From Salarias fasciatus (taxonomy: Eukaryota): a stretch of DNA of 64,000 nt. Below are positions 1,060 to 53,977 of the stretch, one piece after another (positions within the stretch are counted from its first letter, which is position 1; each line of letters begins with the position of its first letter). The stretch spans positions 29,090,760 through 29,154,759 of the forward strand of contig NC_043762.1 of assembly GCF_902148845.1 (NCBI RefSeq), read 5' to 3'. Position numbers and translations under genes: made by a program. The notes under the pieces are model-generated. The model saw nothing but the letters and a program-made list of their open reading frames with translations. It was not told where the DNA came from and did no database searches.

Positions 1060-4000
1060 TAAATCCCTGCAAATATCTTAGCAACATTTATTGCACAGTC
1101 GCCACTGTCAAAAGCAGTAAGAAAGAAAATATGACTGATATTCTTTGGTTAGTTCAGAATTTAGGTGCTTCTGCCCCTACTACATGTTCAGTGCAGCATT
1201 TCGGTGCTCTTCCCCTCACTACAGGACGAGCGCAGCAGTTAAGTCTTATCACCTCACATGCAAGGTCAGTGCAAGCATTATTTATAAATTTTGACTTTGG
1301 TGTGTAAAGTAGAGAGGATCACTCTTTCCAGGAGAGAATGTAGACCAGGCCGTATCCATCACCACAGACCAGCTCAGTGGGTTTTGCTGGATTTACTTCC
1401 AAAACCAGAACAGGTCCTTCACACACAAACATGCCCACCTAAAGGAAGAATTCACACACAGGTTAAAGTCATTTTTGATGTATTTACCTTTATGAAACTT
1501 GAGTAGAGAACATATTCATGTGATTTGATTTGCTGATCAAAGGTAACTGAATTCCTGTTCATTTACTTCACTTCCTTAATCTGCATTTACACACACGTTT
1601 CACTGCATGTTGCACCTCTGGACAATAACAGCTCTCTTGTTGCAGGACGGTGATGAAGTACCTGTTTCTTGGAGCTGCGGTCCCACAGCTTCACTGTGCG
1701 GTCGAGGGAAGCTGAGATGATGGTGGTGTCAGTCAGTCTCAGCTGAGTGATCCTGTCACTGTGAGCCTGACAATTAAAGAAACATCCCCATCAATAAACA
1801 TCATTTACTCTATAACCATTTCTTCTCTGTGAGGTTTTACTGAAAGATCTGGATTTATGGAAGTAATCTGAACAAAAATAAAACCCATTGGGCTGTCACA
1901 TGTCAGGATCTGTCAGTGCAAATCTCAACTGAGTGTTCTGCAAAATGCAACAAATTCCAGGTGAATTTTCACCCAACGTTTGGAGTTTGAGGCATTCTTG
2001 CAAAATATGCCAATTGTCTGTTCCATACAATTCCAAATTCAAATGAATGTTGTCACTAGTTTGCATATCTACTCACATGCCTAATATTCCAGCTACTCTC
2101 AGGACTTGTTGCAGCACAGTAGGATGAAATATTTTACGCAGTGCTTTTAGTTTAGGGCTTATTTGTCAAGGAAAAGCCCATCAACGTCTGTTTCATTTGT
2201 CATCACATGAAAATTTACCACAAAAGACGTCTCCTCTGTGCATTTCAGAATTTTTAGTTAAGTAATTTACATTTCAGCAGTTCATTTACATAATTCATTG
2301 AAGGAATTGCAACCCCCCCCCAAAAAAAACATTTTATATATAAGGCGAAAGAAGACGTTCTACTTTCATTTGTACAATGATTTCCTAATTTTTTCCTCAA
2401 AATGTTGGCATTGTAAAGTTAATTTAATTGATGTGAAGTGATTAAAGGGAAAGAAGCTTCAACAGAGCAGTACCTGCCTCTATCATCAGCACAACAATTA
2501 ATTGTGTATATGATTAGAAGTAGCACAGAAACTACCAGATGTTGTCCAATTACAAAAATTTAGATGCACTGAACACAATCTAAAAAAGACAAAATCATGA
2601 AAATTTTATCGTAGTTTTCTTTTTTTTGTGGCCAAGCAATAAATAACATTTGTTGAGCTTCAGGGTCTTACAGGTTTTTTGTTGCTCCATGACAAAAGCT
2701 CAGGAGGCAGATTAAACCACATCTTGCCGTCCATGTCGCCACACACCACAAATTCTGACAAAAAAAGAAGAAACACATTCGACATTATGTATTTAAGTGA
2801 TGCACAAAGGATTTGTTGATAAACACATAAAACATAAGTATCAAATGTAACTGTGTTTCTATTTCATCTCCACTGACCGCCGGAAGGCAGTGCTGAAAGC
2901 ATGGAATGACTAATATCAGTGTCGCCACGAGGAATCCCAGAGACCAACCTCACTGAGAAGCCTCTGCAGAGTCAAAGACCAGACCCAGTGGGTGGGGAGT
3001 GGTGGCGTTCATGCTGTACTACCTAGAAAACGGTGCCGCCGTCACCCAGGAGGCATTTTCACATATGTCATCCAGTGGTACTCCCCTCAGAGCAGCCCAA
3101 GATGTGGACTCCGCTCTGCTGGAGTGGCAGCATACTCCATGGTAGAGGGAGGTTCAGCACCTGGTAAGAATGGTGAATGGTATCCATGATCCAGTGGGAT
3201 AAGCACTGCTTGGAGAGAGCAGAGTCTTCGTCAGGGCCCCCATAACAGACCAAGGCTGATCTGAGGTACGAATTCCCCTTGACGTGTCAATACAGCGTCC
3301 TGGAGCTCTTACTGGGTACAGTCTCCCTGTCTCGATTAACACTCAATGGAGGGCCATATCGTGGGGGCTGTATAGACTGAATAGCCTGTAGCGCCTTCGG
3401 GAAAAGGACAACGTTCGAACACAGAGTGGCCCCTAACATCCGGATGGCACATCAGGCGTAACGGACTGACAGGCACGCTCACCTCACCCACGTCTCGCTC
3501 GGTAACAGCCAACAAAATGCAGTATTGCCTGCACCCGCTGCTGTTCCCGTGTTGACACAAGCCCTCCAGCACCGAGTTCAGCTCCCATGCTGGAGTCTGT
3601 GGGGCTCTCGGGGGCGAAGCCTCAGAGCCCCCTTGAGAAAGCAGACACCAGGTCGTGGCCCCCAGCTGTGCCATGAGGAGACCAGGCAAAGCACAGGATC
3701 CTCCCTGCCGACGCGGCACCACTTAACTTCCGTCGCACTCTGACATTCAGGATGGTCCTCCTGACAGGCTCCGCACAGCTGCTCAGCAGCGATTCTGGCC
3801 TTCCAGTTGCCACATGTATAAGTGGTCAGTGCGGATTGGAGTGCCAACCTGACCTCCGTGCTGGATCAACAGATCTCTTCTGTTGGGGGGGTGTTCCACG
3901 TTCTTGCTGTGAGAGACTGTGCTGCACAGGCACTTTTCCTGAGCTGGACGAAAGGGTCGTCACCAGCAACAGCATGTGACCCTCCTGAAGAATTCTCTGG

Positions 4001-7000
4001 GGTGTCCGTCCGAGCACGGGAAAGCGGCTAAGAGATCTAACAGAGGTCCTCTGGCCAAGGGTGCACCAGCGCGTCTTGGCGAAGTGGCCGGTAGAAAACC
4101 ACGAGAACAGTGGGCCGGTTCCTCTGAAGCGACCCCTGCCCTGCTGAAAGACCCCAAATTGTGTGCACCGCTAACCAGCCAACCCAGATACCAATAAGCC
4201 AGGAAGAGAACGTACAGACAGTGCCTCCACTGGCACTGAAAAGCTAACACCCACTGTGTGGTAAACAGTACCACTGGGGCTCAGTAAAGGGTCGTCCATG
4301 CTTCACATGTCCGCGTGTCCCCCGTCCACTTTGGAACATCCGCACACCACCGACGCCCATGTGCTCACTCCCATGCTAAATTTCTGAAATCATGACAGCA
4401 CGCGTTCCACGCATTTGCACTGATGCCTGCGCCCTCTCAGAGAAAAAAAGCTGCGCGCATGCACATAACCAAAATGGCGACCAAGAGAAAGCCGAGGGAG
4501 ACGCAGCTCCTGTGTCTGCTGTACTTAGCCAAAAACAGAGGAAAAAACAAGCGTCAGTACAGTGTGCCGTGGCGGTGCTGGAGAACACTCTGGCTGGCGC
4601 ATGCGCGACAGATAAAGCTACTCGGCGCAAGCGCGACTTCTGTGTGGACTCGGCGCACACAAGCAACGCGGTCACAAAGTCTGGCTGCAGCACGGACGTC
4701 CGCGAATCGATCAGCGTGGACCCTAGCAGACAGGAATTCATGACGATTTTTTTGTCACGGGGACAAATGCGCAATGCACACCCACGCAGACATGTGAAGC
4801 ATGGACGGGTCTTAAGCTGGGGAATTGGTACAACGCAGCCTTGCAAGCAATGGAAGTGAACACTAACCCTGCTGCTAACAACAACCAGGATCACGCCGAT
4901 ACGCCGAGCGAGGGGCGCACGAATGGCCCCTCCACCACAGCAGCCAAGCAAACTGCATTGCCAACAGCCGCAGTCAGCACGTCAAGAAGCGAGGGGAAGG
5001 TAGTGCACGGACGCAGTCTCCCGACAGGGGTGGAGCTGGCTTAATACCCGAGTGCTGAGCAGCCCGGCTAGCGTTCAGCTCCTGGGCTGACACTACAACC
5101 CCTTTCCCACTGCAACTAGCGGGTCGACCTGTGTTTTCGACCCGCTAACGATCGGCTTTTGACTCCTTTCCCACTCCCAGCAGACCCGGGTCTAACCACC
5201 TGCGAGCTGCGTTTTCCCGCACTGATGGTGTCCCATGTTGATGACATCATCAGCGCGACAGAGCAAAGCGAAAGTAAACAATGCAGCGGAACACCGTCCC
5301 CGTTACCTAAAGACGAATCTCCTCTTCCCCACGGATCAGAAGCTCTTTGGTCTCGCTATCGTGCCAATAATGGGTCATCTTGACGAAGGAAATCTCACAC
5401 TGTGTCCAGAAACAACAAGCGTGCTAACGTAGCCACGCCACGTCATCACGTAAATTACGGCGTCGACTCAGAGTCTGCCTTTCACACTCCTTTCGCCCCT
5501 CCCACTAAAAGCCGATAGAAGCCGACCCGTTAAAAACCCGGGTCGATTGCAGGGTTGAACGACCCGGGTCAAAATGTCGATTCCACCCTTTCACACTGCC
5601 ACGAGGAGCCGATTATTAGCGGGTTTAAACGGGTGTTTTGGCCAGTAGGAAAGGGGCTTCAGAGTCTTGCACAGTCAACCAAAGGACAAGGGCGGTGCGA
5701 TAAGCTGAGGGAAGGGGGCGTACGCCGCCTGCACAGCAAACGCAGATCACCGGGCTAGTATTCAGCTGAAGCTACGTCCAGGAGAGGGAGCGGACGCACC
5801 ACGGTCCCTCTTCATTCTGCCCTCTCAGAAAAAACCCCACCCGCCACCTGTGGTTGTCAAGGCTGACGTTGTTGGTATGCACACTCAAACTGCACATGCG
5901 CGAAGGGAATACTGAATGCTTTCAGCACTGCCTTCTGGCAGTCAGCAGGGATGAAATAGAACTTCCAAGATAATTTTTTTCAGTGTAAATGGAACTTTCC
6001 CTCAGTTTTTTTTTTCTGAGAACAAATAGACAAGCAATTAAATGAAACTAAATGATAAATACCTTTGTCCTTTGTTAGAGCAGTTATGAGGCTCTCCCCT
6101 TTCTTAGCTCCTTCTTCTCCTCTTCATCTTCTTCCTCATCTTCTTCTTCTTCATTCCCTTTCTCCTGACTCTGCTGCTCATCCTGATTCTCCTGCTGCTC
6201 CTCATTCTCCTCCTGGCCTTGCTGCTGCTCCTTCTTCTCCTGCTCCTCATTCTTCTTCTCTTCCTGCTGTTCCATCACGTTCTGCTTCTCCTCATCGTCC
6301 TCATGATGCTCCATCTCTTCTTCATCCTCCCAATCTTCATCCTCCTCATCCTCCCAGTCCTCCTCTTCCTCAGCTTCTTCCAGATCCCCCATATCTTCTC
6401 CCTCCTCCTGATCTCCAGAGTCCTCCTCTTCCTCCTCCTCTTCCTCCTCCTCCTGATCTCCAGAGCCCTCCTCTTCCTCCTCCTCTTCCTCCTCCTGATC
6501 TCCAGAGCCCTCCTCTTCCTCCTCCTCTTCCTCCTCCTGATCTCCAGAGTCCTCCTCCTCCTTCTCTTCCTGACCCTCGACCTTCTTTTCCTTCTTCTTA
6601 CTTTCTTGGAGTTGTGAGTGCTTCTCCTCCTCATCCTCCATTTCCTCATCTTTCTGATCTTCCTCTGCTTTCTTTGCCGTGTCCTTCTCCTCCTCCTCCT
6701 TGTCATCTGTCTTCTCTTCCTCCTCCTTCTCATTGTCTTCCTGCTCCTCCTCCTCATCCTCCTCCTTGTCCTCCTCCACATATCTATCAACCTCCTTCAT
6801 GGTGGTTGAGCTGAATCCTGAATTGAGACTTCCTTTGGAGCCCATGTTGAACTGTGAGAGAGGACAATTTTTTTTTTTTTAACTCAAAACAGCTTAGTAT
6901 TGATTCGATGATTCAGAAAACACGCCCATAAACAAAAGGAGCACAAAGCAGAATAATTAAACTTTGTGAAGCTTCAAAGACCCTTTTTTGCAAGTCTAAT

Positions 7001-10000
7001 TTGATTGAATTTGATGAGATAAAACCTTGACAACTTGGAAAATAGGAATCCAATCCTCAGTGAAGTGGAGATTATTCAACATTGTTGAGGTTGACCAATG
7101 ACTGAGAGAAGTCATCGTCACAGTAAAACTCACCAAGAAGCCGATGACAACAGTTCCGTCTTGTTCACCGAGCAGCCACACACTATTGTTGTCATTACGG
7201 ATTATAGCATGGAAACGAACAGTGACACGCCAGCTTGAAATGAGAAACACACAGAGGGGATTTAAGGTTTTCCTGAACAATGCAAACTCTTTAATGTATA
7301 AGAAACAAAACTAAGTAACTGCTTTGAATTTAACCAAATTGGATACCAATATGACAAACAGGATTTGTTCACAAGGTGTGCGACTGAAAATATCTGCCAA
7401 CAATCTTTCACCAAGTGGTTCACCCTGAATTGTCACTTCAAAAACTCAAGCTCTCCGAGAACTCACTTTGTGATCATATGTTCCCATGTGTTGCTCATGT
7501 CAAGTGAGACGTCGAATATCTTCCCATAGGAGGACACCCCCAGCAGGACTGAGCAGTAGAAGAGGTGCTGCACTTGTTCTGTCACTTTGTAGGAGGTCGC
7601 CTTCACCAGGCTGCAAGGAATAAACACAGAACAAGCAAACTGTTATCCAATTGAACACGAATGCAAGATATATTTTTTGCACTTTTCAGCAAGCAGCACC
7701 ATGTTGGTTCTGCATTGAAGTAAAGCTCAAAGTTGTGTATTATGTCTGCAATACACAAATGCCTGTAATGTGTATTCATGACTAATTATTTTCAGGACAA
7801 AAAGATTGATTTTGACTTCATGTGTGACAGGTTGATGCATCTCGATTGTGACTGAATGCCTGTACAGAAGTCCCAGAGTTCACTGTCATGAGTTGTATAC
7901 ATCAGCACAAAGTTCTACTTGGAGGCATTTTTTTTTTAAGCTTTTGAATTATTTTGAGGTGAAAATGGAGGCGATGAGGATTACACCTGGAATATCCTGT
8001 CAGAGGAGAAAGAACAGGAATGGAAGGGTCATTTTAGGATCGTGAGTTACACTTCTAGTGGGAGCTGCAGGGACAGAAGAGGACTATATGAGAGCAATGT
8101 TTGAATGTCACAAAGAAAGGTGAATAAAATGTAGAAGTGCCCCAATGTGACTTAATTTCAGATGTTACCAGAAACAAACAAGAAAAATTAGAGATGTAGC
8201 TTCAACAATCAGACGAAAATGGACAACATGGAAACTGCATTTGGTAAACATAGACGCAATTGTTTAGCCTTCTGTAACACAGTGACTGTACACTGAACTA
8301 TCTGGACTCACCTCACCGTCAAAACAAAAATCAAGGCTCTGATAAGTTTTTAGGTAAGAAAAGCTTTAGAGTAAGATTAGATTGACCACAAAGAAGAGAG
8401 ATATCAGAACTGTGATATTTACCTGGCCTTGTTGTGTTCTTCATTCCACATCATCTCCCAAACGTCAACCTGCAGCGATGTCTTGTTGCTAATAGCTAGC
8501 TGGTCTTTGGGCATGAAGCAGGCTGCTGTGATGGGGGAGTCGGACACCTGACACAAACATTCATCTGGTTCACTTCAACATGAAAACATATGTCTGCATC
8601 AATAACCGTTCTCGTGGAAACACTCACCTGTTTGTGGGTAATAATGGCGTGGTGACGCCACACCTCCACCAAACCGGACTCATAACCAGCAACAAACATT
8701 TCACCGTTTTCAGAGTAGCTCATAACTGCAACAGACTTCTTCTGGTCCTTAGGATAGTCTGTCCAGAAAGGGGATAATATGAGCTGAAGAGGAAACTGTG
8801 CTCATCTAGCTGTGCTGCAACTGAACAATCCGCATCTGTACATCTACACTTGCAAGATTAAAAAAACCAGAGGTTTTTGGTTTTATTCAGATTAAAAAAC
8901 ATGATGAAAGCTGAAGTTACTGTAGTTCTCTAACGCCTGCTTTTCATCATCTTGAACATAAGACCAGGGTGTGTCTATTTCTGTCTCTGTATCCTTTAAT
9001 TTCAAGTCTATTCACCCCCATTGTAATGTTCTTATTAGTCAGCATGAAAATAGTCATGAACTGAGTCCAAGTGCAGCAAGACCAGGTCGAGAAGGAGAGA
9101 GCAGAGAACAGCAACAACACTCTCCTGATCCCCCTTGTGGAAATCATTTCTCTGTATTTATCACATCCTTCAAATGGTTAAACATACCTACACATGCTAG
9201 GAGCTACTTTCAATTCCATTTCCCTACTCATCACCTACATAAGGTGGTGGTGAAAGCACTGAATGTTCCCACTGAGCATGCGCACTTTGGGTATGCGTAC
9301 CAACAGCATCACCTGTGACCCCTGGATGACGCTCGAAGGTGATAGGTGTGATAGAGGTGGTACAGGTCATGAGGGCCTGGCCATCCTCTCGCAGGGTGAA
9401 CGATGTTCTTCACCTCCTCACTTTTTTCCAAAGCGCCAAAATCTTGCACTATGTGGCTTTCCTGCGGCTCTTAGGCAAGCTGACGTCAGTGATGGCCGCA
9501 ATACAACAATAGGTGGAAGCTGTTTGTTGAGTGGTGCAAAGTGTGTAGGGAAGACCCTGTGCTGTGCCCGGTCCCTGCGGTCCTGGAATTTTTGCAGTCT
9601 CTCCTGAACAGGGGCCGATCATCTAACCTGAGGGTGTATGTGGCAGCAAAATCGGCACGACATGCAGGCGGCACAGTTGGGAGCCACACTCTGGTGTAGA
9701 AACTCCTCATGGGGTCTGCGAGGCATCACCTCCCCAAGAGCCCCATGAGCTCCAGCCTGGGACCTACATTCAGGACTGGAGGGCTTGTATCAGCTTCCTT
9801 TTCAGCCCTTGGCAACAGCGGCGCTACAGTGGGCGTCAAGCAGAGACTGCCTTTCTACTGGCCATTACCTCTGCTAAATGTGTGACGAGTTACACGCTCT
9901 GTCTGGTAATCCATGCCTGAGGTGGCGTCCGGACAGTGTGGGCGTCACTCCATGGCCAAATGCTGCCCCCTCACCCCCCCAAAACGTGCTGTCAGGTTTG

Positions 10001-13000
10001 CACTCCGAGTAGCTGATTTGACTCAGTCGAGATGACCCTCCAGTCCTGGAGGCAGGGCGGAGCTCTTGTGCCCAGTCAGAGCTCTGAGAAGCTACATGGA
10101 CGTGACCACAGAAGTGTCAGTCACAATCCTCGTGGTCATGCAAGAAGTTTCTTCAGGAGCCAAGCCTCTGGTGACACCGGGACTTAATAGCTTCCCACGG
10201 TCACAGGTGACGCTGCTGGTATCCATAAACCAACTGTGCATGCATGAAGGAAACATTGAGTGATTTCAGCACCGCCTCCTGGCGGTCATCCGAGGTTCAT
10301 AGAAGCGTAGCTGCATTTTTAGCTTTTGCTCTTTTGCTTTATTAATCACTTAGTTGACTTCAAAAATGCAGTTCATCCATTCATATCCTCCTCATTCGCT
10401 GTGCCTTATCTCTATTCAATCTACTTGTCAGCCACTAAAAATGATCCCAACCTGCACGGGAAGTGTCACATGAGCACAGTTTGGATGATCAGCTGATCTG
10501 TACCTCGACCCGATGCCCACATGCGAACTGAGCGATCTTCAGACACTGTGATGATTTCGTTGAATTCCTCCCTCAGAACAAAACCTTGAACGGCTCCACT
10601 GTGACCGTGGAGGGTGGCGATGTGCTCCACCTGGTCAGAAACACAGACAAAACACTGCAAATGTGAAACATGAAACATGAGTTTAACCAGTTGTCTTGAA
10701 GACAAATGGCGTTGTTGTTTTACCTCTCAGCAGCAACCATGGCGCATAGGGGTGTCAACGGCTACACGCGTAAATGTATACACGGAGAACAAATCATAAC
10801 CATTTAGAAAAATCAGTGACCGTGCACACGTCATTTCCCTCCTCCTCCTCGTTCTTTCTCCACCAATAAACATATTGGTGTAATGATTTTGCCTGAAAGC
10901 TTCAGATAATAACATTAACTAACTAAATGTTTCCTCGAGAGCAGTGATCCACATACACAATAAATACATGCGTTGTAATGTTACGTTGATTTAAAAAAAA
11001 AAAAAATCCACAGTCACACCAGAGTTGTGTTTCAGTTGACTCGGGGACGCGATGGCCTCCGACAAGGAGCGGAGCGCAGTGCGGCAGCTTTTCTAGCAAA
11101 CTGGAAATACTGCTGGGTGGAGGCTGTGTCAGGAAAAGCTGGTTTACAACAGCATGGGATTATGAAGTGCTGGATTTCAATGGAGACCGAGCCCTCTCGT
11201 AGTAAAAGATCATAAGTCACTGACGTCTCATGTAACCGGATGCACGAGTAGAAAAATTGTAAACATTTACACCCCTAAAGACACACAGAACAGGTGAGGA
11301 TAAACCTGAAAGTCAGCTATTAATGAGTGGGGCTGCTTTCATGTGATGTATTAATTAAGATATAATTTCATACCAACTGACCTGCAAAGGCTTCCAGACC
11401 TTCACCATCCCATCATTAGATGCAGTGAACACAGTCATCTCTCCAGGCTTGATTTCTTTTTCCTTGTCTTTGTTTCAAAATGAGAGAAAAAAAAAAAACA
11501 GAAGTTAAAACAAAAAACAAACATTGAGCATCTGCTCTGTCTTCCCCAGAAGTCCAGCACCTGTGTTTGCCTGGAGGCAGCAGTGGTTGATGCGTTGCTT
11601 GTGAGCGGCGATGTGGCTGACCTCTGCCTTTGTTTCCCACTCCCACACATGCAGCTCCCCGTCTGCAGACCCTGCAATCACATGTTCTCCCTGCTCACAG
11701 GGAGCTCAGTCAGTTCAGCCTCAACATGACAGATTCTCCTGGAGACACAGTGGAGCAGTTTACTCACCAGGCAGCAGACTGAAGTCAGGGGACTCTTCCA
11801 GGAGATTTCTCTGACGCACTGACCTGCCTCAAGGTCCCAGAAACAAAGTCTCCCATCATCTGAGGAGCTCACCTGAGACAGAAACCAGTCCATGAAGACA
11901 AAGCTCTCTGAGATAAATCAACAATGTTCAGTGCTTTCAACATATTTCAAATACGTTCCTCTTTGAGCCACTGAGGGACAGAAAACACATCAGGAGTGAA
12001 TATAGCTGCTGCCAGCATGGAAACCTTGGATAAGAGCCAATATGGGGCTGACACTGACAGGCAGGACTCCAGCTGTGCTGAAGACTCACCACACAGCCGT
12101 CAGTCCAGGCGCAGCCGGTGATCCAGTCCCGGTGAGCGTGATGCAGAGGTTTGGAAAGACGGCCAGGCACCGAGCTCACGTCCCACAGCATCAGAGCCTG
12201 AAACAAGCAGAGCATTTCAACATCATGTCTTATTACATGGGGACATTTCAGAGGGAGTATTAAAGGTTTCTCCCTATTTGTCATAACATTAAAGTTCTTC
12301 CATTCAATTCAAGAGAACATTAATCAGCATTTCTCTTGATGTTTTAAAAACCAAGTAAACAATCAATGGAATGTTTTTGTTACCTGATCTTTTCCACCAG
12401 AGAGGAGCTGTTTCCCATCAGGACTGAAGGCCAGGCAGGTGACTGATGAACTGTGGCCCTTCAGCAGCGCACATGGAAGGTCCGGTGGGTCATGAGCAAG
12501 AGTCTTTATCCGCCACAGAGCAACAGTATGGTCCTCTGATGGGAAAAGAAATACAACATGACTGACATCTGAAAAATGTTGACAGTTGACTTAATTATAT
12601 ATTTTTTTTTTTTTTACAAATTTTTAACAGTTATATTAGTCGAACAGAACAATAAAAGGAAAGAAAAAAAAAACACTAGAAACAATAAAAACAATTTCCG
12701 AGTAAAGATGCACACCATGAAGTCAAGAAAATCCCTGCAACATAATGTTGGAGACACCAGGCTCTACGTATCTCAGATAGGGTTCCAAACTACATGAAGT
12801 CGGTCTGTTTTTCCATGCAACATACATGTCAGGTACTCCAGTGGCAGTAACTGCCGCCCTACTTTTTGTCAGCCTTGAACAGATGGTTCTCTCTCATTGA
12901 TCCACTACAATAAAAGATTCTTCCTTGCTGCATAAGTAAGAATATAATCCAGCCTCTTATTGTGTTGAGATGTTCAGTGTCAGCTTGGGAGGCCCAATTA

Positions 13001-16000
13001 GAGAGACAGTGTCCATCCCCAATCTTAAACCCAAAATCTCTTCAATTTCAGACACATTAGACCTTTGTAATTTACAACATGACCAAAAACAATGAGTTAA
13101 GGTACCAATTTCCATTTTGCATTTAAGACACATAGGTGAAAGAGGAGGGTTGACGCCCGGTTGGGAGATATGTGATTCTGTGTATGATTTTTAAGTGCAT
13201 TGCTTGGGTTCGAGAACAGACAGATATTGTTTTCGTATGCCTCCAGACATCCTCCCAGTCTTCATCACGTATTACAGTATTTAGCTCTTTCTCCCATGTG
13301 TCTTTAAGATTCTGCAAACCTCGTTGGGGTGCTGAATACATAACTTCACAAACTAAACACAGATCTCTATCTCTTGAAAATAATTTCTCAAGAAGAGAGC
13401 ATTCACAGTTTTCGGCTAATGTGGTACTGTGCAAGATATAATGCCTTATATGCAAATAACAAAAGAAATCATGTCTGGGTATAGAATATTTCTCGATCAT
13501 TTGTGTAAATGCTATGACCACACCATCAGAGAGTAGATCCCTCAGTCTATGAATGACATAAACCCCACAGTTAAAAAAAAAAATCAAACATCCTGGGCTG
13601 AAGGTCAAGATTATTCAAAATAAGGGCGAGAACAGATGTAAACTTTGATCTTCCCTCATGTCGACGTACTATTTGCCACGTCTTGAGTATATTAAGAGTG
13701 ACTGGATTATTAGAACTCAAATATTTTCAGATTTCTTAAAGGACCTATATCATGCAAAATCCACTTTTTTAAGGTTTTTAGAATGCCCCAAAGTTGAATT
13801 CCCTTAAAAACCACCCCCAAAAGGTTATTTGCCTTCATCCACGCATGTCTGAGTAATCTCTTCCAGTCTGCTGCTCTCTGCAGCAGCCCCTCCCTTCGGG
13901 TAGGAAACAGCTCGTTTGAAACTCTTCAAACCTAAGTACGTCACAAAAGTTGAACTCCTCCCCACCACTTCTCCCACCCCACCCCAGACAACACGCCAAC
14001 TCTCCTCTGACCAGCAGCAGCTGATTCGCATTTTCCACTGAGGAAACACTCCCCCCCACCCACCCCCCCTCCCGCAGGCCCTCGGCAATCAGCGTTGCTG
14101 CTTTTTGTATCTCCGATTACGGAGATAAACTTTAACCATCGTCTGAAAGCAACAATCAAGCAAGAGCAAGAGTCTGAAGGGTCTGAAGGGTCTGCGCTTG
14201 GTGAGTTTCTAACAGGAAAAGATGTGTTTGCGTGTCTTTGCGTGTAGAGAAGCTAGAGCTAAAGAGCTAAAGCTAACCCTTAGAGACGCTAATGTAGATC
14301 CGATAGGTTGAAGTAGCTGTCAGTCAAAGTCCACAGGGGGAGAGGTGGGATTTTCAGTGAAACTGAGCGTTTTCTCTTCCGGGTTTCAGAATTAACCTCC
14401 GAAAATCTTTTATTTAACACAAAATGACTTTTCCTTAGCCCCAAAAATAAACTATTACCATGTTAATGCCAATCATAGGGTTTGGACGAGCTAAAAAAAG
14501 CATGATACAGGTCCTTTAAAGAATAGTAAATTCTTTAGTGGGTACTTTGTAAGGTAAGCTTCAATTCCTACACAAATAGAGTTTGAGTTATTTCTCCTGC
14601 AGTCACAGCTGACATGTTGTAATATTTGGTAAATCTAAATCACCTGAAGCAGTTGGCAGCAGTGTAGCCATCCTAAGTTTTGGTCTGATCTTACTGCACA
14701 TGAAAGAACTTAGCCAGCCATTCAGGTGTCTTATCACCTTATTTGATTGGAATCATTTTAACACGACACAGCAATCAAGATAATATATTCATTTTGACCA
14801 AGGCTATATGTCCCAGACAGGAAATAGGCAAAGAACTCCATCACTTCAAATCCTGCTTCACTTTTTCAAACAGGGGAACAAAGTTTGCTTTGTGCATTTA
14901 CTCAAATTTTGAAGTTATGAATATACCCAAGTAAATAAATCCTGCAGGAGACCACTAAAAGGGAAAAGAAAGCAAGGCAGATGGTATTGCATTACGGCTC
15001 CTAGTGGCATAGCTTCAGACTTGGCCAGATTTATTTTAATACCCAGAGAATGTGCTAAACAAATCAATAATCCCACGTAAAGCTGGTATCGATGTTCCCA
15101 GATTGGAGATAAATCAAAACATCATCTGCATAAAGACGCATCCTAAGTTCATAATCATGCTGTATAGCAGGTGCCATCCTTATGGCCTCTGCCATTGGCT
15201 CAATTGTTAGAGCAAACAAAAGGGGTGATGAGGGGCAGCCTCGTCTGGTTCCTCTATGGGAAACAGTTTGATTTAAGACCATTAGTTAAAATATCTGCCT
15301 GCAGACTATCACACAAAATTTTGACCCACGGAATAAAATCATCACCAAGAAAAACTTATTTAAAGTGTAAAATAAATAAGCCGGTCAACGACTCCTCAGC
15401 ATCAAGAGAAAGCATGACACATCCACATCTCTTAGCTAGAAAACCTGAGTTACATTGAGAAGGCACCTGACATTATTGCAGGAATACGAGTGTATCAGTG
15501 TTAAAACCAGTCCTGCTTACCGGACGCTGTTGCCAGGTAAGTGGAGTTTTGCGCCATTGCCAGGACGACACCCGACTGCGAAGCAAACATGCCTACATAC
15601 TCTAGGCTCCCCTCCTTGTTCTTGTACGCCCTCAGTCGTTGATCACTTCCTGCAAACACCAGTACTTCTGTCTTTTTCTTCTTTGTCTCCACAACGAGCC
15701 ACAGCATGCAGTGGATGGACAGTTCGACGAACTCAATGGACTGGATCTTCTCTCCTGCAGTCACATCACATCATGTTGTGGTTGGCAGAGCGTGGCTTAC
15801 CAACACTAAAACTGGGCTAATTGTTAAACTAATACAAAAGAAATTCAACATGGGAATAGGCAGATTTGATCATGACGAGAGCCACAAAATTTTTCTCCAT
15901 TACAATCACAGAGCCAAGTACTTGATATTCATCTCGTACATGCATTAATATAGCAAGCCCAGAGTCACGATAAAAGTACATTGAAAACATCTTCATACCA

Positions 16001-19000
16001 TCAGATCTGGAACTGATCATTTATTGATTTGATTTGATTTTTTTACCCATCCTGTTTAATTATATAAACTAGTGTCATGAGGCTCCACTGTATATATAAC
16101 TACAGTTATTTGACTTTTTAGTGCGAACCACTTTCCATTGTCATGTTTAATGGACATTTCCAGCGCTGTCATCTTGTTTTTTGGAAAACGTATTCATATC
16201 ACAAAAACATACCGGATTCGAGGCTAAAGATGTTGATGCTGTCAAGGTGGTATCCCACTGCAACGTAGTCTCCGTGTGCAGCCACACACAGAGCAGCAGG
16301 CCCAGATTTGTCACGCTTCTTTTTCTTCTTAGGAGGCTCCTGCAGACTCTATCAAAAAACAGAGTATACAAGTTGAAGAAAAAAAAAATAAAAGACTCCG
16401 AGAATATTCACAGAGCCAGTTGCACGTTGTTACTTTACATCACTGTGAGTCAGTTTTAATGTGGAGACAGAGGTGAGGCCAACTGGAAGATTTCACTGTA
16501 CACAATGTTAACATTAAATATGATGATGCAGATAAGTGAGGTGAATTTAAAGTGAAATATTTCGAAGTAAGTAAGTAAGAGCTTACTGACCTCAGCACTT
16601 TTCAATGTCGCGACTGAACGTCCAAGTCCACCTGACCACAGTCGGATCTGTTTGTTTTTTGAACATAGAAAAAAAAAAGAATGCATCAGAAATAGTAAAG
16701 TAAGAGTTTGCTTGCTGCACATGTGCAGATGTAAAGGATTGATGTACATGAGTAAATGAATAAGTTCTAAAGCCACTTTGCTACAGCGGTGCAGCAATGA
16801 TTCTACCTTCAGCCATCACTGTCTTCAGTATGTAAAGTAAAGCCTCACCGTGTGATCAGAGCCAGCTGTCAGCAGCAGCAGTTCTTCCTCCAGGAAACTC
16901 AGAGCCTCTGTGGCTCCGTCATGAGCCTGGAAACATCCCACACAGGTGGAGGTGGGCACCGACCACACCCGCACCTCTCCGGAGATGGAGCCAGAGCAGA
17001 GCATCGAGGACGTAGACGAGAAGGCCAGACTGCGCACGGACCGCTGGTGACCACGAAGCAACTGAGGAGACGAAAAAACGCAGAGGAAGGTTTTGGCCGA
17101 ATGCTGCAGCGGTCTGGATGAACTGTAATTCTGGATCAGACCAGAGTCTCACAGGAAGCTGCTGATTCTGGAGCCACTTCCACACCATCACGTCTCCGTT
17201 CCAGCAGCCAGCAGCCAGCAAGTGAGCTTCAGGGTCAAAGGTCACACAGTTCAGGGGGCTGATGCTTGAAAGAGAGGCCACTTCATGGCCTTTAGTGGAG
17301 GACCACACCTGAAGAGCAGAACGTTTTTACTCATTGTGAAAGACGTTGAAAAGATCAGAATTGTTGAAATGTTTGAGACACACTTTTAGCTTGAAGTCAA
17401 GGGAAACCGTCACAAGGTGCTTCTTGTCTGCACTGATGTTACTGGCTGTTATTGCATTATTGTGGCCTTCAATCAGAGCAGTCCTGCAGTGAGAGGAAGC
17501 AGAAATCAGGACACCTACCGTATTTTCGGCACTATAAGGCTCACTGGATTAATAGGCGCACAGTCAATTAATGGCTTTTATTAAAAAATTAATATATGGG
17601 GCGCACCGCATTTTAAGGTGTATAGAATAGTATGAGCGAAATACATAATGGCAGTCTAGGTGGTTACATTCTCGGTTGAAATGTGTGAGTAAAGCGACAT
17701 ATCATAGCGAGTTTGACTGAGGATCGCTCCTCTTCACGGATGTGCAGCTCAGAGCGGCCACGACTGGTCGAACTCGCTTGGTCACCGGGGTTCAGCCAGC
17801 TGCCGTCTCCTGAGTGAGGTGCCCCGCCGACAGCTCAGCCGCAGCCGGCCAGCCGCTCCTGGCGGGTGGGCTGCCGGGCGGGGGCCGGCCGTTCTCAGAG
17901 TCGCAGCTTGCAGGCTGCCGCCCGGCGTCCGGCCGCTTCCCACGTCGGCCGGCTGTGCAGCTGCGTGCCGTGCTCCGCGATTGGGAGAGTGGAGAATGTG
18001 CCTGAAGCTTCATGTTTGCCGTTCTGTTTAAACTAGCTAGCTTAGCAGTTTAGCAAGCAGGGATTGTTTGCTCATGTGATCAGGGTGATTACCATAATAC
18101 CCGCAAAAAAGGCGCATCGAATTATAAGGCGCTCTGTTGGGTTTTGAAAAAATTACAGGCTTTTACGTGCGCCTTATAGTGCAGAAAATACGGTACAAGA
18201 GAATCATTTGTCATTAGTTTAACTGAGGATGTGAAAGGATTTCCTCTGAACGCTCGTCTCACCTGCATCCATTCTCCACATCCCAGAGTTCGATGCGTCC
18301 ATCAAAGGAGGTGGTGGCAAGACGCCCGTCCTCCACAAACATACAGCTTGAGATGCCATCGCAGTTGCTCACCAGAGACTTCACTTCCTGCTCACAAATG
18401 GAAGAAAGAAGGCGTGTAACATAAACTCCTGTTTCTAAAACAATCCATTTAATTTGTTAATGAGATGACGTGTGACTTCCACCAAGTGGAACAGAACAGA
18501 AGGGAGAAAATAACATTTGTAGAACTTGTGTTCGTACCAGTCCAGTCTGTACATTGAGGAAAAGCAGCATTCCCTCACAGCTGCCGACCACCATCCGTAG
18601 TTTATCCGGGCTCAAGGCAACGCAGGTTGGTTCAGAACGGAGAGTCGACCTCAGCATGCTGAGATGAAACAGAACAAAATATGAAATAAAGTTATGCTCA
18701 CAGTTAATCTATCACAAAGTTTTAACACCTCATTTACCGATTTCTGATTGTAAGGGATGTGCATTAAATGGTCCTGCATTCTCACAGTATTTAAATAGCA
18801 CCTACATACATTTCTTTAATTAAGAAAGAAATGGGGGGCAAAAAAGAAAGAAATGGAAGTCTAGCTTAGAACTATGCAAGTTGAAATATATTCCGTTTCT
18901 AAAAAATGAATTCAAAAAACTAAATCAGGCATGACTGAAAGCCAGTTTTGAAAAAGACGGGTTTACCTGAACTCTTGAGGATCATAATTTAGACTAGAAC

Positions 19001-22000
19001 GACACTCAATAATCCGGTTTCCTCCTTTCCCCACCAGACCTTTGGCCCAGGACTGAGCAGAGGTCTCTGGAGGACAGTGAAGGGCTTCTTGGATGAAAAG
19101 AGCCGGCCAGGAGGAGAGAACGGCACTGTGGCCCCAGAGGAAGTTGTGGCAGTCCCAGACGTTTCCACAGAAGGGTCCTGACAAGACAAAGACGTGATGT
19201 GATGAGGACTGAAAACACACTGAGCAACAATTCCAAGGCTAAAGGTTGTTTAAACACTTACTTGAGTGGCCAGATTTACTCTCCTTCTCTACAGGAAAGA
19301 CAGAAATTCACAGGATTGCAGACATCAGGATGTTTCATTCATTACTATCAAGACTACTATTATACACAAAACAGCTTCAGAAGACGTTCCTTCTATTATA
19401 TGAGCTGATCGTCTGTACTCACTGTACAAGTCGTACATGTCCATGAGGTGCTGCAGGAGCCCGTTCCTCACGTTAGCATACAGGAAATAATAGTTGGACA
19501 GCAACGACTCGGCTGCCTCCATCTGTCCACTTTCAATCTGACCAAAGCCAAATAAAGACATGTACTAGTTAAAATATTCAGTAAATATCAAGCTCAAACA
19601 TGCTTAAAAGTGTTTAGCTTATTACTGAAATAAATATATTCTCATTATTGGAGATTTGCTGGTAGATGATGCTCATTTGCTGCATCACAGGACTGTCAAA
19701 CTGTTGAACGGTAGAAAAGTCCCACTGTTGATGTGTGAAGTAGTACTGATGAAACCAAGGCTTCCTCACCAGGCTTTGGGGCAGGTGCATGACAGAGTTG
19801 ACCTCACAGTGAAAGAAGGTCTCTTGTCCCTCAGGATCAGCCCGTGTCCACAGATGAGCTGCAGAAAAAGGAGACTTTTAATAAGCACTCACCTACAGTT
19901 TATACATTAAGAACACTCAAAGAAATCAGCAGAGTTTACCAGCCAGTATGAGGTGGGCTCTCTTTGTTTCACTCTCTGCTGGAAGGAGAAAGTCCTCAAA
20001 GGCTCGCTTCACCTCCACATTTTTCAGAGTCAGCAAGTCGCTGGTATTGTAGCAATGAGATGGATCCATCAGGCTGCAGGAAACAGACCAAAGAGATGTA
20101 ATGCGTCTCTAACATTCACATTGCTGAACAATGCATCCTTTGGAATTGGGGTTGAGATTCAAATAGAGCTGTCGAGGAAAACAGCGTCTCATGAGGTGAA
20201 ATGAAAGAATACTCGACGTTACAACTTCTTGAAGCAAGTTGAGAATTCTACCTTTGTAAACTCTGCACTATGCGAGTGAAAGCTGCCATGGGAATGCGTC
20301 CTGTGGGCTTCCTGGACAGCTGCAGGACTTCCTGCCATGTGACCTGTCCTTTCTGAGAGGACAGACTGTTGCATGTGTTCAGCACAGAGTACAAGTCTCT
20401 CTCTTTCAGACCTGAGAACGGAGAAAACAAGAAGACAGACATGGTCGGTTCAGTTTCAGCATCTTCCTCTAAGTTTCATTATCATCAAATATCATTAAAT
20501 ATCAACATATAAGTTTGAGGATGGAGGTGGTTCCATTTGGACAGCTTGGATTTGAAGACGCAAAGACAAAAAAAAAAAAAATAAATAAAACCAACAACCT
20601 TCCAGTCAACTGTTCTAAACTGAACCACAGTTGAATATATCTTTTACATCAATGCTTCGAAGAATTATCATCTTGTCATCATCATACTGTACACCATCAG
20701 GTACTTTTATCAGTGCTGTCTTCTTTTAATTTCTCTGTGGAAGCAGTCAATTGGTTTAACTCATATTTATCAAACAGGAGGGCAAGTGTCTGCATCAGTA
20801 AATCTCAGTCAACATATCTCAACTGTAACTTCAGAGTTCCCCAGGGATCCATATTGGGGCCTATTTTATTTAGTTTATACATAAATGATCTGCCTTCTGT
20901 CTGTCCAGCTGTCTCCATACAAATGTACGCCGATGACACAGTTCTTTATACACATGCTGAAACCAAACAACAAGCAGCAGAGAAACTGAATGCAGCTACG
21001 GTCCATGTGTCTGACTGGTTGAGGAACTCATGCTTACATCTAAACAGAAACAAAACAGTGTGTATGTTTTCCTCATGTTAAGTCAACAGAATCCGACCCT
21101 GACATTGTGATCAAATGAAACAGTAGTCAGGTAGTGTCAGAATTTCAATATCTCAGAATCACATTAGACTCAAACCTGACATTCAAAAAGCACATTAAAA
21201 AGGTAGAAGATACAAATAAATTCAATTTGGCCAATTTCAGACACATAAGGCCATACCTAACCACAGATGCAGCAAAATGTTTTATTCATGCCATGATCTT
21301 CTCACACATAACATCCTGCTTCACAACCTGGTCACAGACAAACCAAACCACTTTGAAACCCACAGAATCCCTACAATCACACATTAAAAACACTTGATCA
21401 AAAGTCCAACCTTTATCACCATTGTCAAATAGTTCAGAAATACAACTTATTTAATTTCAATAGATTTCCACTTTTTTAGATGCATGCCTGATCTTTAAGA
21501 TATTAAATGGGCTTGCACCTCCACCACTACACAGATTCATGAAACAAACAGAATGTGGTCCCAGAACAACCAGGACAGCTCCAGAGGGGACTGTGAGGGA
21601 CATTCAGACAGTGTGTTTGGAGAGACGGTCCTCTCTGTTAGAGGCTCGCATCACTGGAACAGTCTCCCCACTGAAATAAGACAGAACTCAAACTACTCGA
21701 CCTTCAAATCCAGCCTCAAGAGATGGCGCAAAACAAACCAAATTAGTAATCATGGATCAGTACAAGCTAAACTGTCACTGGTTTTACCCATACATCCCTA
21801 AAGTCTTTTGTATTGTATTTTATTGTATGCTTTTGTATGAATGGTTTTTATTTTCCACTTTTAACAACCTGCTCAGGGACTACAGATGGAAATCAGCTTA
21901 TGGCTAACTCTGGCATATTTACACTTTTACTGGAAAAGAAGTGTTGATCATTATGCACTGTCCCTGACAGATAGATGAATAAACAAACAAATAAATAAAT

Positions 22001-25000
22001 AAACAAATAAATCTGTGTCATTTTCCTACTAATAACCCTGCAGTCACTAGATTCCTCCACTGTAACAATGATTCAATTGTGAAGACATACAAATTTTGAA
22101 ATAGGACTAACACCAGCATTAAAAAGTATGTGCATGACTAATCTTACCAGTGGTGCTGACAGTGAGCACTGCCAGCGCCCAGCGGAGTCCCTGCATGTCT
22201 CTGTAGTGTGAGCAGAGTCTCTCCAGGCTGTACTGCACCAGCTGGCTCAGAGACCCTGGGATACCCAGAACATTCTCCTTCAACTGAGACACAAAGACAG
22301 ACAACAACACATTTAAAGTAAGAGTAAAATAAATAAACGAGAAATTGGCACTCAGAGAGCGCAGACCTCCGCCACAGCTCAAATCAGTCACCAACAACAA
22401 TAAGAACACCATATATAATCAAACATTGTGATCGGGGGTGTGATCAGAGCGGAGCGCTGCAGCATGCGGTGCCTCTCTCTGTCGCCCTCTCTCCCTGTGT
22501 GTATGTGTGTGTGTGTGTGTGTTTATCTGAAAAGGAAAAACCGAAAAGCAACATAATTTATGTTATTTTACTTCATTTTAATTTGAAAATTGACCCCTGT
22601 CGGCGGGCCTGCCCAACCATGTGAAAGACTCCCTATCTCTCAATGATAAAGAATCCTTTAAAAAAAAATCCTCGATCCAGACAGTGATCCGGATCATCAC
22701 CAAAATTTAATGGATTCTACATTAGCCCAAGACCCACCGCTCCACAAAGTTTCATTGCAATCCATCCATTACTTTTTCCATAATCTTGCTAACAAACCAA
22801 CAAACCGACATGATTACATAACCTCCTGGCGGAGGTAATAAAACTACTGCAAACGTGATTAAAAAGCATCACGGCACCAACCCTGTCGAAGGAGGCAAAG
22901 TTCCTCAGGTCTTCACAGGCCAGGTGCAGGTAGAGAGGACTCAAAGCCCCCTTCTTCATGATCAGCGTCTGGAGCTAAAAAAGTGAACACATAACAATTT
23001 TAACTGAGAAAAAGAATCACAGACGTTACACAGATGTGAAGTCTTCAGCAGAAAAGTAAGAAGAAAACCTGGCTGTTGAACGCAGAGTCACCAAGTTTCT
23101 TCCCGAAGGCGTCCAGCTCCTTTTTAACGATTTCCCTGCGGTCCGGCACGGTGAGCGGTCCCAGGGAAAACAGGACTGTGCCTGTTTTCTTGACCAGCGT
23201 TTGTAACAGAGGCGCTTTGGAGGTCATGCTCACAACCAAACACACACCCTGAAGAACAAAAGACAACCTGAGTGGCAAAAACGTCTGATGACGAGCAGAA
23301 CACACCATGAATTTAAGACTTACTCAACTCGTTGAAGACAAGTTCATTTCAGTTACTTGATGTTCATGAGCATCAGTGATGAGTTGCGGATGCAATCCAC
23401 TGACCTTTGGAAGCTTTGGAGGGAGCCAATCACAGCTCAGCTGACCTCTGCCGTCTCTGATCAGGTCTACTCCGTCAATCAGCAGCACCAGAGGAGTTGT
23501 CATCGTCATGGTGGTCAAGGTGGAGTGAAACTCTGTCAGCAAGTCTCTGAGACGAAAGAGAGAAAACTCATCACGTCAGCACAGAAGGAAACAAAATGTG
23601 ATGAAAAATCAGACGACAGTCACTTACTTATACGAGCGAGGAAGAGGTGATTCCTCCTGTGTGTCTTTAATCTTTCTCAGCAACTGAACGAGGCACCCAA
23701 CAAGGTTTTCCCCGGAGCGTGCCGACTGGCTGGCAGCCGTCGAGTAGGAGACGACTCGGCAGACGAGGTTTCTCCTGGACTTCTGTCCAGTCCGGAGGGC
23801 TTCTGCCAGACCAGCCTGTAGGAGAGTAAAGGTTTAGGCAGTGGTCACTTTTAGCAGAAGTGACAGTGAACCTTTCTGAAGCCAAGTCGATCACTTTTCA
23901 ATTTTTCATGTTTAATCTTCTGATAGATTTACCATGAAGAGAGTTTTGCCCTCTCCAGCTCCTCCTTCCACCATCATCATGTGCCCCTTGGTCTGCAGCT
24001 GCTCCACCATCTCCACAGCAGCTGACAGCAGCTTGGACCTGCCAAAGAACTGCCTCTGTAGCGCCCCCTGGTGGACCTCCTGCTCATAAACCTCTGCTGC
24101 CTCCTCACGCTCCTCAGACGCCTGTGATGAAGAACAAATGGTTCAGTGGACTTTAAAGAGCTGCGATTAATTAAATACCAAACAATAGTTCATATTGCAC
24201 TGTTCTTGACATTAACAACTGTTTGCCAATATCTGAGGCAGAAACTGGAATAGAACAAAAAAAAGCTAAATGGTACGACTTTTGATTATTTTGAAGGATT
24301 CTCATCAGTACATGTTCAGAGTGACTCACATCCACAAACAGCTTCTTGACAGCCGTCCAAAGATCCTCCAGAACGGCTTTGCCAAACTCATCCAGTTTTG
24401 TCAGATGTGGTTTCCCGTCCACGACGCCTCCCCACTCACAGGAGTAACTGTGATCAGCACACAAGACAATTTAGCAAAATGCTCCCATCATGCCGTCATG
24501 GTTCATTTTATAATGGAAGTTGTTCATTTATTCAAGTCGAAAATGTGATGCATTACAAAAACATGGCATTTGATTTTACAAACGTACGTGACTGAGAAAA
24601 CTCACTTTTCAGTGACCTTCACATTGCTGTCTCTGAGTGCGTTCTTCAAAGTGGTCATTTTCTGCTCAGCATCGTTTGATTCAGGGGTAAAATGTGATCT
24701 CCAAGCAACAGGAACTGATCTGGCAAAACAGGACAAATACTGAATGAAGCACTCAATATCAGTTCTTGTTATGTACTGAACTGTAACAGGATAAACTCAT
24801 GGAACTCAAACTACAAATAAGCTCATTCAAAGTGCATACTTGATGATTGCTGGGTCTCTGAAGTAGCAGAACATCCGCTCATGTGCAACACCCGGGTAGA
24901 GAGACTGGAACTGACGGATCTCCATCTCAGTGACGGACAACCCCTCCGGCGCCGTGGCCAGCTGCACACAGAGAGAAAATTCAAGGAAACTCACTTGAAT

Positions 25001-51815: not shown

Positions 51816-52079
51816 CGGCGTGTGTTTTGGTGTGGAGGCGTCTCTGATGCTGCCGTGATCCAGTGGTGTAGTGGTCGGAACTGTCAGAAGATGGATGATT
51901 CACAAAGAAGGCGGCGAAAAACCCAGAGATTTAAGTAAAAGTTTCCAGATATCGGCCTGGTCGGGTTGGAGGGACTTACGGTATTTATGAAATGAAAACT
52001 AAAGCAACTTGTGACCCACACAAGTGGAGCACAAACCGCTGAGCTGAGCTGTCACTTCCTTCCACTTTCTGTTCTCTCA

Positions 52080-52081
<2 letters not shown>

Positions 52082-52119
<38 letters not shown>
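52082..52119. repeat. (CA)19 microsatellite, intergenic between znrf and parp2
   Basis: Direct reading. Confidence 0.95.
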
Positions 52120-52121
<2 letters not shown>

Positions 52122-53729: not shown

Positions 53730-53892
53730 TCACCACAGCGAGGACGAGTAGTTGAACTGGATCCTCAGCAGGTAGCGCATGCGGATCTGGGCGGGGTCGT
53801 AGACGATGAACTCGTTGTAGAGCAGGGAGTAGCCGCTGGCCGAGCCCACGCTGGTCTTCACCCCGGGGCCCATCGGCATCGTGGCTCCGTTC
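53730..53892 (-). CDS. parp2: PARP2 terminal exon (NGATMPMGPGVKTSVGSASGYSLLYNEFIVYDPAQIRMRYLLRIQFNYSSSLW*)
   Basis: Matches the human PARP2 C-terminus 'NGSTVPLGPASDTGILNPDGYTLNYNEYIVYNPNQVRMRYLLKVQFNFLQLW*'. Acceptor ctctccgcag|. Confidence 0.9.
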
Positions 53893-53977
53893 CTGCGGAG
53901 AGCAGAGGAGGACCAGGGGTCCCGTCAGACGCGGATCTCATGCAGAGTTTGAATATTTGTGCTGCGCGTGCACCGAC

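Follow-up and report, generated by a model that had tools for sequence, protein, structure and literature searches.

The two in-frame stops that close the acidic reading frame of a TEP1-like gene of Salarias fasciatus were the downstream consequence of a one-nucleotide deficit in a G-run at 6099..6096 on the minus strand of the window (the whole stretch of 64,000 nucleotides analysed here). The region around them, 6851..6063 (-), was an ordinary internal exon of S. fasciatus TEP1. The acidic tract of this exon was a lineage-specific blenny expansion of a short acidic loop, which had grown to roughly 190-290 low-complexity residues rich in E, D, K, and Q.

The coding span of the gene, 39125..1322 (-), was an exact map of the RefSeq protein XP_029970146.1 (TEP1-like, P0270), of which 2646 of the 2651 residues were placed as exact peptide blocks (57 blocks, all in order). 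The exons at 36290..30502 aligned with residues ~300-720 of a characiform TEP1 (P0123), a segment assigned to TROVE by its homology with P0272, a 90%-similar S. fasciatus paralogue; the Pfam TROVE score (E=1e-115) thus belongs to the paralogue and not to the window protein. The NACHT NTPase domain (PF05729) was among the precomputed Pfam matches of XP_029970146.1, and a Walker-A motif, GEGKT, was encoded at about 24.0 kb of the window. PF25047 and PF25048 (Beta-prop_TEP1_2nd and Beta-prop_TEP1_C), which are among the C-terminal WD40 propellers, were listed for the same protein and were also scored in P0001 and P0272; PF25048 begins at the AHSD exon (1766). A search of the PDB for a solved TEP1 structure returned generic WD40 matches only. 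Upstream of TEP1, an exon at 56040-56237 (-) had PARP2 as its best PDB match (E=6e-19); PARP2 and TEP1 adjoin in the human genome as well. Three TEP1-like genes were found in tandem on one S. fasciatus chromosome.

The acidic exon was entered from an upstream WD exon (7134..7233 (-)), which ended in the phase-0 donor TTCTTG/GTGAGT (8.35 bits) and was orthologous to the Muraenolepis exon ending ELSFM/gtgagg. Its own acceptor was tctctcacag/TTCAACATG, whose AG occupies 6853-6852, and the first exon base, in phase 0, is 6851 (cag/TTCAAC). The first-pass annotation had read the acidic ORF as part of TEP1, an internal exon reached in phase 0 from the GFL/GTGAGT exon, and the exact mapping of XP_029970146.1 bore this out. 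It had also regarded CAAAG/GTATTT as the conserved donor, and rightly so, since this donor (AAAG/GTATTT) is used in phase 1 in the orthologues. The two TAA triplets that it described were present (6086-6084 and 6077-6075), as was the donor sequence, but the exon ended at 6063, not at 6064. The exon of 789 nt (6063..6851 (-)) was the orthologue of a 109-nt Muraenolepis exon, FTVGRVDYGGWSFTSLVLPREEEEESALITALTVEDG. It was followed by a true intron of 3308 nt (2755..6062 (-)), which contained transposon-like ORFs, and then by an exon of 83 nt ending ...KKP (2672..2754 (-)), with the acceptor tttgtcag/AA in phase 1 and the donor CCT/GTAAGA in phase 0. The phases of the 83-nt exon were those of the Muraenolepis exon LLVSGDLEGNMRF...KTP, which likewise starts with 2 nt. 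The next exon, ...SSKKQ (1662..1766 (-)), had a phase-0 acceptor and opened Pfam Beta-prop_TEP1_C. The last coding exon, VGMFVCEGP...ILSWKE, was at 1319..1438 (-) with its TGA stop at 1321-1319. The Muraenolepis locus and the window agreed at 3/3 junctions (phase 0 in, phase 1 out). In the C-terminal WD40 propeller, the acidic exon covers the last part of one blade, then a surface loop, and then the opening strand of the following blade.

The lesion was located at the 3' end of the acidic exon. Eleven conserved β-strand codons (6064..6096 (-)) gave a tblastn match to the Muraenolepis peptide ALITALTVEDG and a 100% match to XP_029970146.1, and they were read one base off the acidic ORF. Because the conserved end of the exon was in a frame other than that of the acidic tract, both TAA triplets fell outside the conserved frame, which read CTC ATA ACT GCT CTA ACA across them, and were stops in the acidic frame only. 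It had been proposed that the acidic frame was conserved up to the donor, that the TAAs interrupted conserved codons, and that the exon was joined directly to the exon at 1766 (QRTK/AHSD). Such a join is formally in frame, as 6851..6063 is a multiple of three and 1766 is a phase-0 acceptor. However, the conserved 11-residue peptide at the exon end sits in the other frame, and the exon at 2754..2672, which had been overlooked, intervenes; this exon is conserved, its splice sites are strong, and it is present in XP_029970146.1 and in every orthologue. The proposed structure is refuted by these findings.

The acidic exon was 3n nucleotides long instead of the 3n+1 needed, and the conserved frame had a TGA at 6126-6124; the frame shift was therefore confined to 6123..6087. 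In the DNA alignment with Ophioblennius, ATGGGGGAGAGCC was opposed to AAGGGG-AGAGCC of the window, that is, GGGGG to GGGG at 6096..6099. With four Gs instead of five, the acidic frame slipped by one base, read ...KGRAS, and then met the TAA at 6086-6084. The comparison used the paralogue proteins together with the Ophioblennius DNA. Both S. fasciatus paralogues read ...KEL(Q/K)KG(E/G)... straight through, and the paralogue and Ophioblennius proteins ran through the tract into (E/G)S(L/R)I(T/S)A(L/I)TKD(K/R). As the sequence stands, the reading frame is broken before the end of the last propeller, and adding one G at 6096-6099 makes it uninterrupted. The normal route leads from the acidic frame into the conserved strand, by a phase-1 splice to 2754..2672, and on to 1766..1662 and 1438..1322. 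Two other routes were considered. An internal phase-1 donor, AAA/GTAAGA at 6602, joined to the exon at 2754 was ruled out by the conserved strand and by the paralogues that read through. Read-through of the GTGAGT at 7133 as a true or duplicated exon copy was also rejected: at the DNA level it scored no better against the acidic exon than shuffles did (16 vs 17.9±2.0), it had no usable phase-1 donor, and it misfitted the percomorph consensus.

In RefSeq, XP_029970146.1 was built with two introns inside the acidic exon, a GC-AG gap of 486 nt in frame (6192..6677 (-)) and a frame-restoring gap of 71 nt, A/GTCAGG...AAAG/GG (6099..6169 (-)). If both were real, the frame would be restored in the mRNA and the 2651-aa protein would be made, and the dinucleotides of both gaps are formally legal. 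However, their donors scored 1.5 and 2.6 bits and the pyrimidine fractions over the 20 nt before their acceptors were 0.15 and 0.10, respectively, far below the 53 other introns of the gene (7.4±1.9 bits; 0.70±0.10, minimum 45%), and 71 nt undercut the shortest of those introns, which was 75 nt. The 186 residues that the two gaps remove are coding and conserved in the two paralogues and in Ophioblennius, and the models of these genes read through. From these sequence features, both gaps were judged to be annotation artefacts, and the RefSeq structure is very unlikely to be correct. The value of the analysis for annotation lies here: XP_029970146.1 hides a frameshift behind two implausible introns and loses those residues.

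The acidic ORF (6084..6845 (-)) encoded 253 aa, of which 109 were E, 28 D, 26 K, and 23 Q. Its frame was stop-free in 0/5000 composition-matched shuffles of the 765 nt (frame 0), so the open frame was more than chance; the remaining two frames contained 3 and 20 stops. Conserved landmarks ran across the whole acidic tract in four blenny sequences, which together with the shuffles showed that the frame was constrained. The ORF opens with an ATG and has glycine at position 2, as might be expected if it were a separate gene within an intron, coding for a small acidic protein that starts MGSKGS. Against such a gene, its first 40 residues were homologous to a TEP1 exon of other fishes (consensus F-MG-K--L-S-FSS), and a strong acceptor that matches the preceding exon in phase lay 6 nt before it. 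No such product was on record: exact look-ups of the 253-aa ORF, of the G5-corrected ORFs, and of alternative starts gave no match in a collection of 15 billion proteins. The probability of an independent gene is negligible.

Within the tract, a tandem array of 42-bp units encoding D/GSGDQE9-10 (42, 42, 45, and partial) was delimited at 6401..6551 (-) by Tandem Repeats Finder, exact-repeat counts, and comparison with the paralogues. Tandem Repeats Finder reported a period of 42 with 4.0 copies and 91% matches at 6397-6566. The array had been described as three perfect 48-bp repeats, but only two copies were perfect, 6551-6510 (DSGDQE9) and 6509-6468 (GSGDQE9); the third unit (6467-6423, GSGDQE10) was 45 nt long owing to one added GAG, and a partial fourth began at 6422. 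The longest exact two-copy repeat was 63 nt at an offset of 42, whereas the exact stretch common to three copies was only 30 nt. The 42-bp expansion was private to the window copy, the S. fasciatus paralogues carrying only a diverged ESGEQ...DSGDQ. Replication slippage of units rich in GAG and GAA is the likely route by which the blenny loop grew, and about two further 42-bp units have been gained in the window copy.

The acidic segment had correctly been called expanded. The distance between its flanking anchors was 189-288 aa in blennies, with about 274 aa in the window copy after frame correction (the acidic loop itself being about 230 residues), whereas the median across 82 TEP1 proteins from other teleosts was 48 aa. 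As the first-pass annotation suggested, ESDASMDSDASMDSE of human TEP1 may be the counterpart of the acidic exon in position. An AlphaFold model of the C-terminal part of the Muraenolepis protein (pLDDT 85) had its acidic residues, 431-440, in a low-confidence loop between strands 422-430 and 441-447. Most likely the tract is disordered, a surface loop of acidic residues that is tolerated and needs no particular structure.

The first-pass annotation had listed a wrong assembly and a truncated or pseudogenised 3' end among its options, rightly so, and these are the two that remain live. Homopolymer indels are the typical residual error of continuous-long-read assemblies, the type to which the S. 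fasciatus assembly belongs, and gene predictors mask the resulting frameshifts with tiny introns. The S. fasciatus assembly rests on 8.0 M PacBio reads (65.3 Gb, mean about 8 kb) (PMC13195801). The favoured reading, at about an even chance, is that the missing G is a homopolymer error left uncorrected in the long-read consensus, or at most a variant confined to one allele of the fish that was sequenced. In that case, the real product would be a read-through TEP1 of 2837 aa with an intact propeller. Alternatively, the deletion of 1 bp may be real, fixed or segregating, and the gene would then have become a pseudogene only very recently, with the two other paralogues as a buffer; this is plausible, at less than an even chance. 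The window does read G4, tandem genes such as the three TEP1-like ones commonly lose a copy, and homopolymers are hotspots of true mutation, the lesion here being surrounded by a slippage-prone tract with recent 42-bp gains.

Several observations weigh against a real deletion, in addition to the error being of a type typical of such assemblies. All 56/56 other coding blocks were intact, and the one-base deficit was the sole lesion in the 8.5-kb coding sequence. The exons 3' of it had no stop and no indel, their splice sites were intact, and the terminal stop was at the orthologous position. Measured against Ophioblennius, dN/dS was 0.26 over the 98 codons downstream and 0.24 over the 575 codons upstream, in a low-powered pairwise test that spans both lineages. 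The window copy also kept the ancestral KKPAHSD residues, which were changed in the paralogues. With all introns kept, a single lesion, and this downstream dN/dS, the gene did not have the several lesions, intron loss, and relaxed constraint of a processed or decayed pseudogene. If the deletion were nevertheless real, the predicted protein of 2727 aa would lose its final 113 residues, namely 11 β-strands or about three blades including Pfam Beta-prop_TEP1_C, with the strand count 3' of the loop taken from the structure model and the start of Beta-prop_TEP1_C from Pfam; this outcome, too, is possible but short of an even chance. Along the mRNA, the stop would precede the last exon junction by 209 nt, and by the 50-55 nt rule, under which such upstream stops mark transcripts for nonsense-mediated decay, the transcript would be a target of decay. 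It is improbable that the G4 is real and that the transcript also escapes decay, in which case a polyacidic tail of ~250 residues would replace the last three propeller blades in one paralogue. Such a tailed form could be neofunctionalised or dominant-negative, for example if its tail acted as a mimic of nucleic acid on an RNA-binding factor of vaults or telomerase.

The gene belongs to the vertebrate TEP1 family (telomerase-associated protein 1, a vault component, TROVE-NACHT-WD40), and it has the same domain order (TROVE, DUF5920, NACHT, TEP1 second and C-terminal propellers) and the same neighbour, PARP2; its exon phases are those of the gadiform orthologue of Muraenolepis. The results have no bearing on the open telomerase or vault questions, and their main value is for annotation. 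Like known long-read frameshift artefacts, the lesion is a single homopolymer indel in an otherwise intact conserved gene, bridged by a 71-nt GT-AG gap without a polypyrimidine tract, and it may be such an error here. TEP1 is triplicated in Salarias, and the same expanded acidic exon, with three landmark peptides in common, is found in the S. fasciatus paralogues XP_029970141-45 (P0271 and P0272) and in TEP1 of Ophioblennius macclurei (P0273), all of which read through in one frame, whereas the window copy has the additional 42-bp units. Outside the blennies, TEP1 of the electric ray Narcine bancroftii (XP_069796907, P0149) has a large acidic repeat tract of ENRDSDQG-like units in the same inter-blade region, directly upstream of the xLTAV strand and the FxxxDSxG blade. 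This tract differs from that of the blennies in repeat unit and lineage, and its sequence is not homologous to theirs. One inter-blade loop of TEP1 thus tolerates very large acidic insertions, blennies and an electric ray having acquired them independently.

The acidic open reading frame at window 6845..6087 (minus strand) lies in a TEP1 exon that is already annotated and carries a low-complexity expansion specific to its lineage; this is an ordinary feature, of some value for annotation curation. The search went from same-strand WD40 exons through fish TEP1 fragments and a representative search to full-length TEP1 proteins, and a 2019-aa draft of the window gene then retrieved Salarias fasciatus “telomerase protein component 1-like” proteins. 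One of them, XP_029970146.1, mapped to 39125..1322 with 2646 of 2651 residues in 57 exact peptide blocks, so the window is S. fasciatus DNA and the gene was already annotated. The reading frame started with ATG, contained 253 codons (54% Glu plus Asp), and ended at TAA 6086-6084. It was preceded by the acceptor tctctcacag/TTCAAC, which placed the exon start at 6851. Downstream came another TAA of that frame (6077-6075) and then the donor AAAG/GTATTT, which placed the exon end at 6063. Shuffling the 765 nt 5000 times never gave a stop-free sequence and the remaining two frames contained 3 and 20 stops, so the open frame was no by-product of purine richness. The first-pass annotation had identified this frame correctly, but the repeat is not of 48 bp, as it had proposed: Tandem Repeats Finder gave a period of 42 with 4.0 copies, in units of 42, 42, and 45 nt (the last longer by one GAG) followed by an incomplete fourth. 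The longest exact duplicate was 63 nt at offset 42, and only 30 exact nt were common to three copies.

The exon series of the orthologous Muraenolepis TEP1 matched that of the window gene. The first exon of this series ended ...ELSFM/gtgagg in phase 0, the second (cag/FTVGRVDYGGWSFTSLVLPREEEEESALITALTVED-G/gtactg, 109 nt) left in phase 1, the third (cag/GG-LLVSGDLEGNMRF...KTP/gtgaga) was in phase 0, and the fourth began AHTDRIS.... The window exons, all on the minus strand, were 7233..7134 (ending GFL/GTGAGT), the acidic exon 6851..6063, 2754..2672 (acceptor tttgtcag/AA-TTT..., donor /GTAAGA), 1766..1662 (AHSD...KKQ), and the last coding exon 1438..1322 (VGMF...SWKE, TGA 1321-1319). Because exon 2754..2672, which had been overlooked, intervenes between the acidic exon and 1766..1662, the junction QRTK/AHSD proposed earlier does not exist. 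A read-through past the GTGAGT donor (7050-7133, minus strand) resembled the Muraenolepis exon FTVGRVDYGGWSFTSLVL. At the DNA level the segment was not similar to the real exon, and it neither offered a usable donor nor fitted the percomorph consensus; we judged this a chance resemblance.

The acidic exon was 789 nt long (3n), whereas 3n+1 was required. With the exon peptide of Muraenolepis as query, tblastn matched 6093..6061 (an 11-residue peptide against ALITALTVEDG) in a frame one base off the acidic frame, ending G/GTATTT in exactly the phase 1 required by exon 2754. XP_029970146.1 contained an 11-residue peptide of this conserved frame at 6096..6064. The conserved frame was closed by TGA 6126-6124 and the acidic frame stopped at 6086, so a single shift must lie within 6123..6087, which includes AAAGGGGAGAGCC. 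At this site the Ophioblennius macclurei orthologue had five Gs (GAGAAGAAGGAGCTACAGATGGGGGAGAGCCGTATATCTGCTATAACAAAGGACAAAG/GTATTTAGC), and the aligned window sequence had four (GAGAAGAAGGAGCTAAGAAAGGGG-AGAGCCTCATAACTGCTCTAACAAAGGACAAAG/GTATTTATC). When the fifth G was added, the exon read on past the TAA site to give a protein of 2837 aa, and both S. fasciatus paralogues and Ophioblennius (...KELQMGESRISAITKDK) read uninterrupted across the tract end; the two TAAs are therefore out-of-frame triplets inside CTC-ATA-ACT-GCT-CTA-ACA. The earlier interpretation, right in other parts, had misassigned the frame at the exon end, and its in-frame stops in conserved sequence resulted from a single missing G.

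Across the tract, XP_029970146.1 read ...EEEEKDT/ENQDEQQ/..., omitting 6677..6192 (486 nt, GC-AG; donor 1.5 bits, acceptor pyrimidine fraction 0.15) and 6169..6099 (71 nt, GT-AG; 2.6 bits, 0.10), both on the minus strand. The 53 other introns of the gene had donors of 7.4±1.9 bits, acceptor pyrimidine fractions of 0.70±0.10 (minimum 0.45), and a minimum length of 75 nt. The gaps cost 186 residues that were conserved in the paralogues, and we regard both as predictor artefacts. The 71-nt gap restored the frame, but as a real mini-intron it is very improbable, with its poor splice sites and a length below the minimum. Elsewhere in the model, 10496-8756 (minus strand; blocks 10627-10496 and 8756-8622) was the sole junction of 56 without a unique GT/GC-AG solution, its boundary probably displaced past the ±9 nt searched. 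A Prochilodus magdalenae TEP1 fragment model contained about 250 residues of MVMVMV..., evidently a translated simple-repeat intron; this is an annotation artefact in another species.

There is about an even chance that the missing G is an assembly error, or that it marks one of two alleles in a heterozygous fish. The 8.5 kb coding sequence carried one lesion: a G5 run had lost 1 nt, in low-complexity surroundings with two close paralogues. Homopolymers in such a setting are where short-read polishing performs worst. The assembly was built from 8.0 M PacBio reads (65.3 Gb, mean about 8 kb; PMC13195801). The exons downstream of the lesion were intact, with dN/dS of 0.26 (98 codons) versus 0.24 upstream (575 codons). 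The single lesion, the G-run context, the PacBio source, and the intact, constrained downstream exons count for an error. A real 1-bp deletion is somewhat less probable: three paralogues provide redundancy, homopolymers also mutate in vivo, and the dN/dS test is weak, but the lesion stands alone and the downstream exons are intact. If real, it would yield a product of 2727 aa without 113 residues and 11 strands, and since 209 nt of mRNA separate the stop from the last junction downstream, nonsense-mediated decay is predicted under the 50-55 nt rule. The remaining probability falls to other explanations.

Two more TEP1-like genes (XP_029970141-45) were found on the same chromosome (31,625,632 bp), which thus carries three (XP_029970141-43, -44/45, and -46). 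Several wrasses and Channa likewise had two TEP1 proteins on one contig, and together these suggest recurrent tandem duplication in percomorphs. PARP2-like exons lay upstream of TEP1 at 53400-58250 (minus strand; best PDB match of exon 56040-56237, PARP2, E=6e-19); this adjacency is a conserved neighborhood, here head-to-tail. Close to PARP2, (CA/TG)n microsatellites (52050-52130 and 54800-55000) were visible as HTHTHT translations. Overlapping long ORFs clustered on both strands within TEP1 introns (3000-5500, 9000-10100, and 13100-14250; for example, 163 aa at 13126-13614, minus strand) look like transposon remnants.

Landmarks along the entire tract were common to four blenny sequences, among which only the window copy had additional D/GSGDQE9-10 units; judged by these sequences, the tract is real coding sequence specific to blennies. 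The length between the anchors W(L/V)(L/V)GE and FxVCGD, located by regex, had a median of 48 aa (IQR 48-51) in 82 teleost TEP1 proteins, was 189, 224, and 288 aa (D+E 42-50%) in blenny proteins, and would be 274 aa in the corrected window copy. Other long values (137, 503, and 954 aa) had merely 11-15% D+E and were taken as mis-anchoring. In an AlphaFold prediction for the Muraenolepis C-terminus, built on an alignment of 41 sequences (pLDDT 85), the short acidic stretch was a low-confidence loop (431-440) flanked by strands 422-430 and 441-447, with eleven strands downstream; Pfam Beta-prop_TEP1_C starts at the AHSD exon. TEP1 of the moray Gymnothorax javanicus (KAJ8272571) contained a low-complexity acidic expansion of GSESGEGSESEKEA repeats in a different propeller loop. 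In that of the electric ray Narcine bancroftii (XP_069796907), acidic repeats of ENRDSDQG type occupied the inter-blade region where the blenny tract lies, but were unrelated to that tract. The moray and ray expansions are independent, and the unrelated tract in the ray suggests that the acidic loop is permissive in general.
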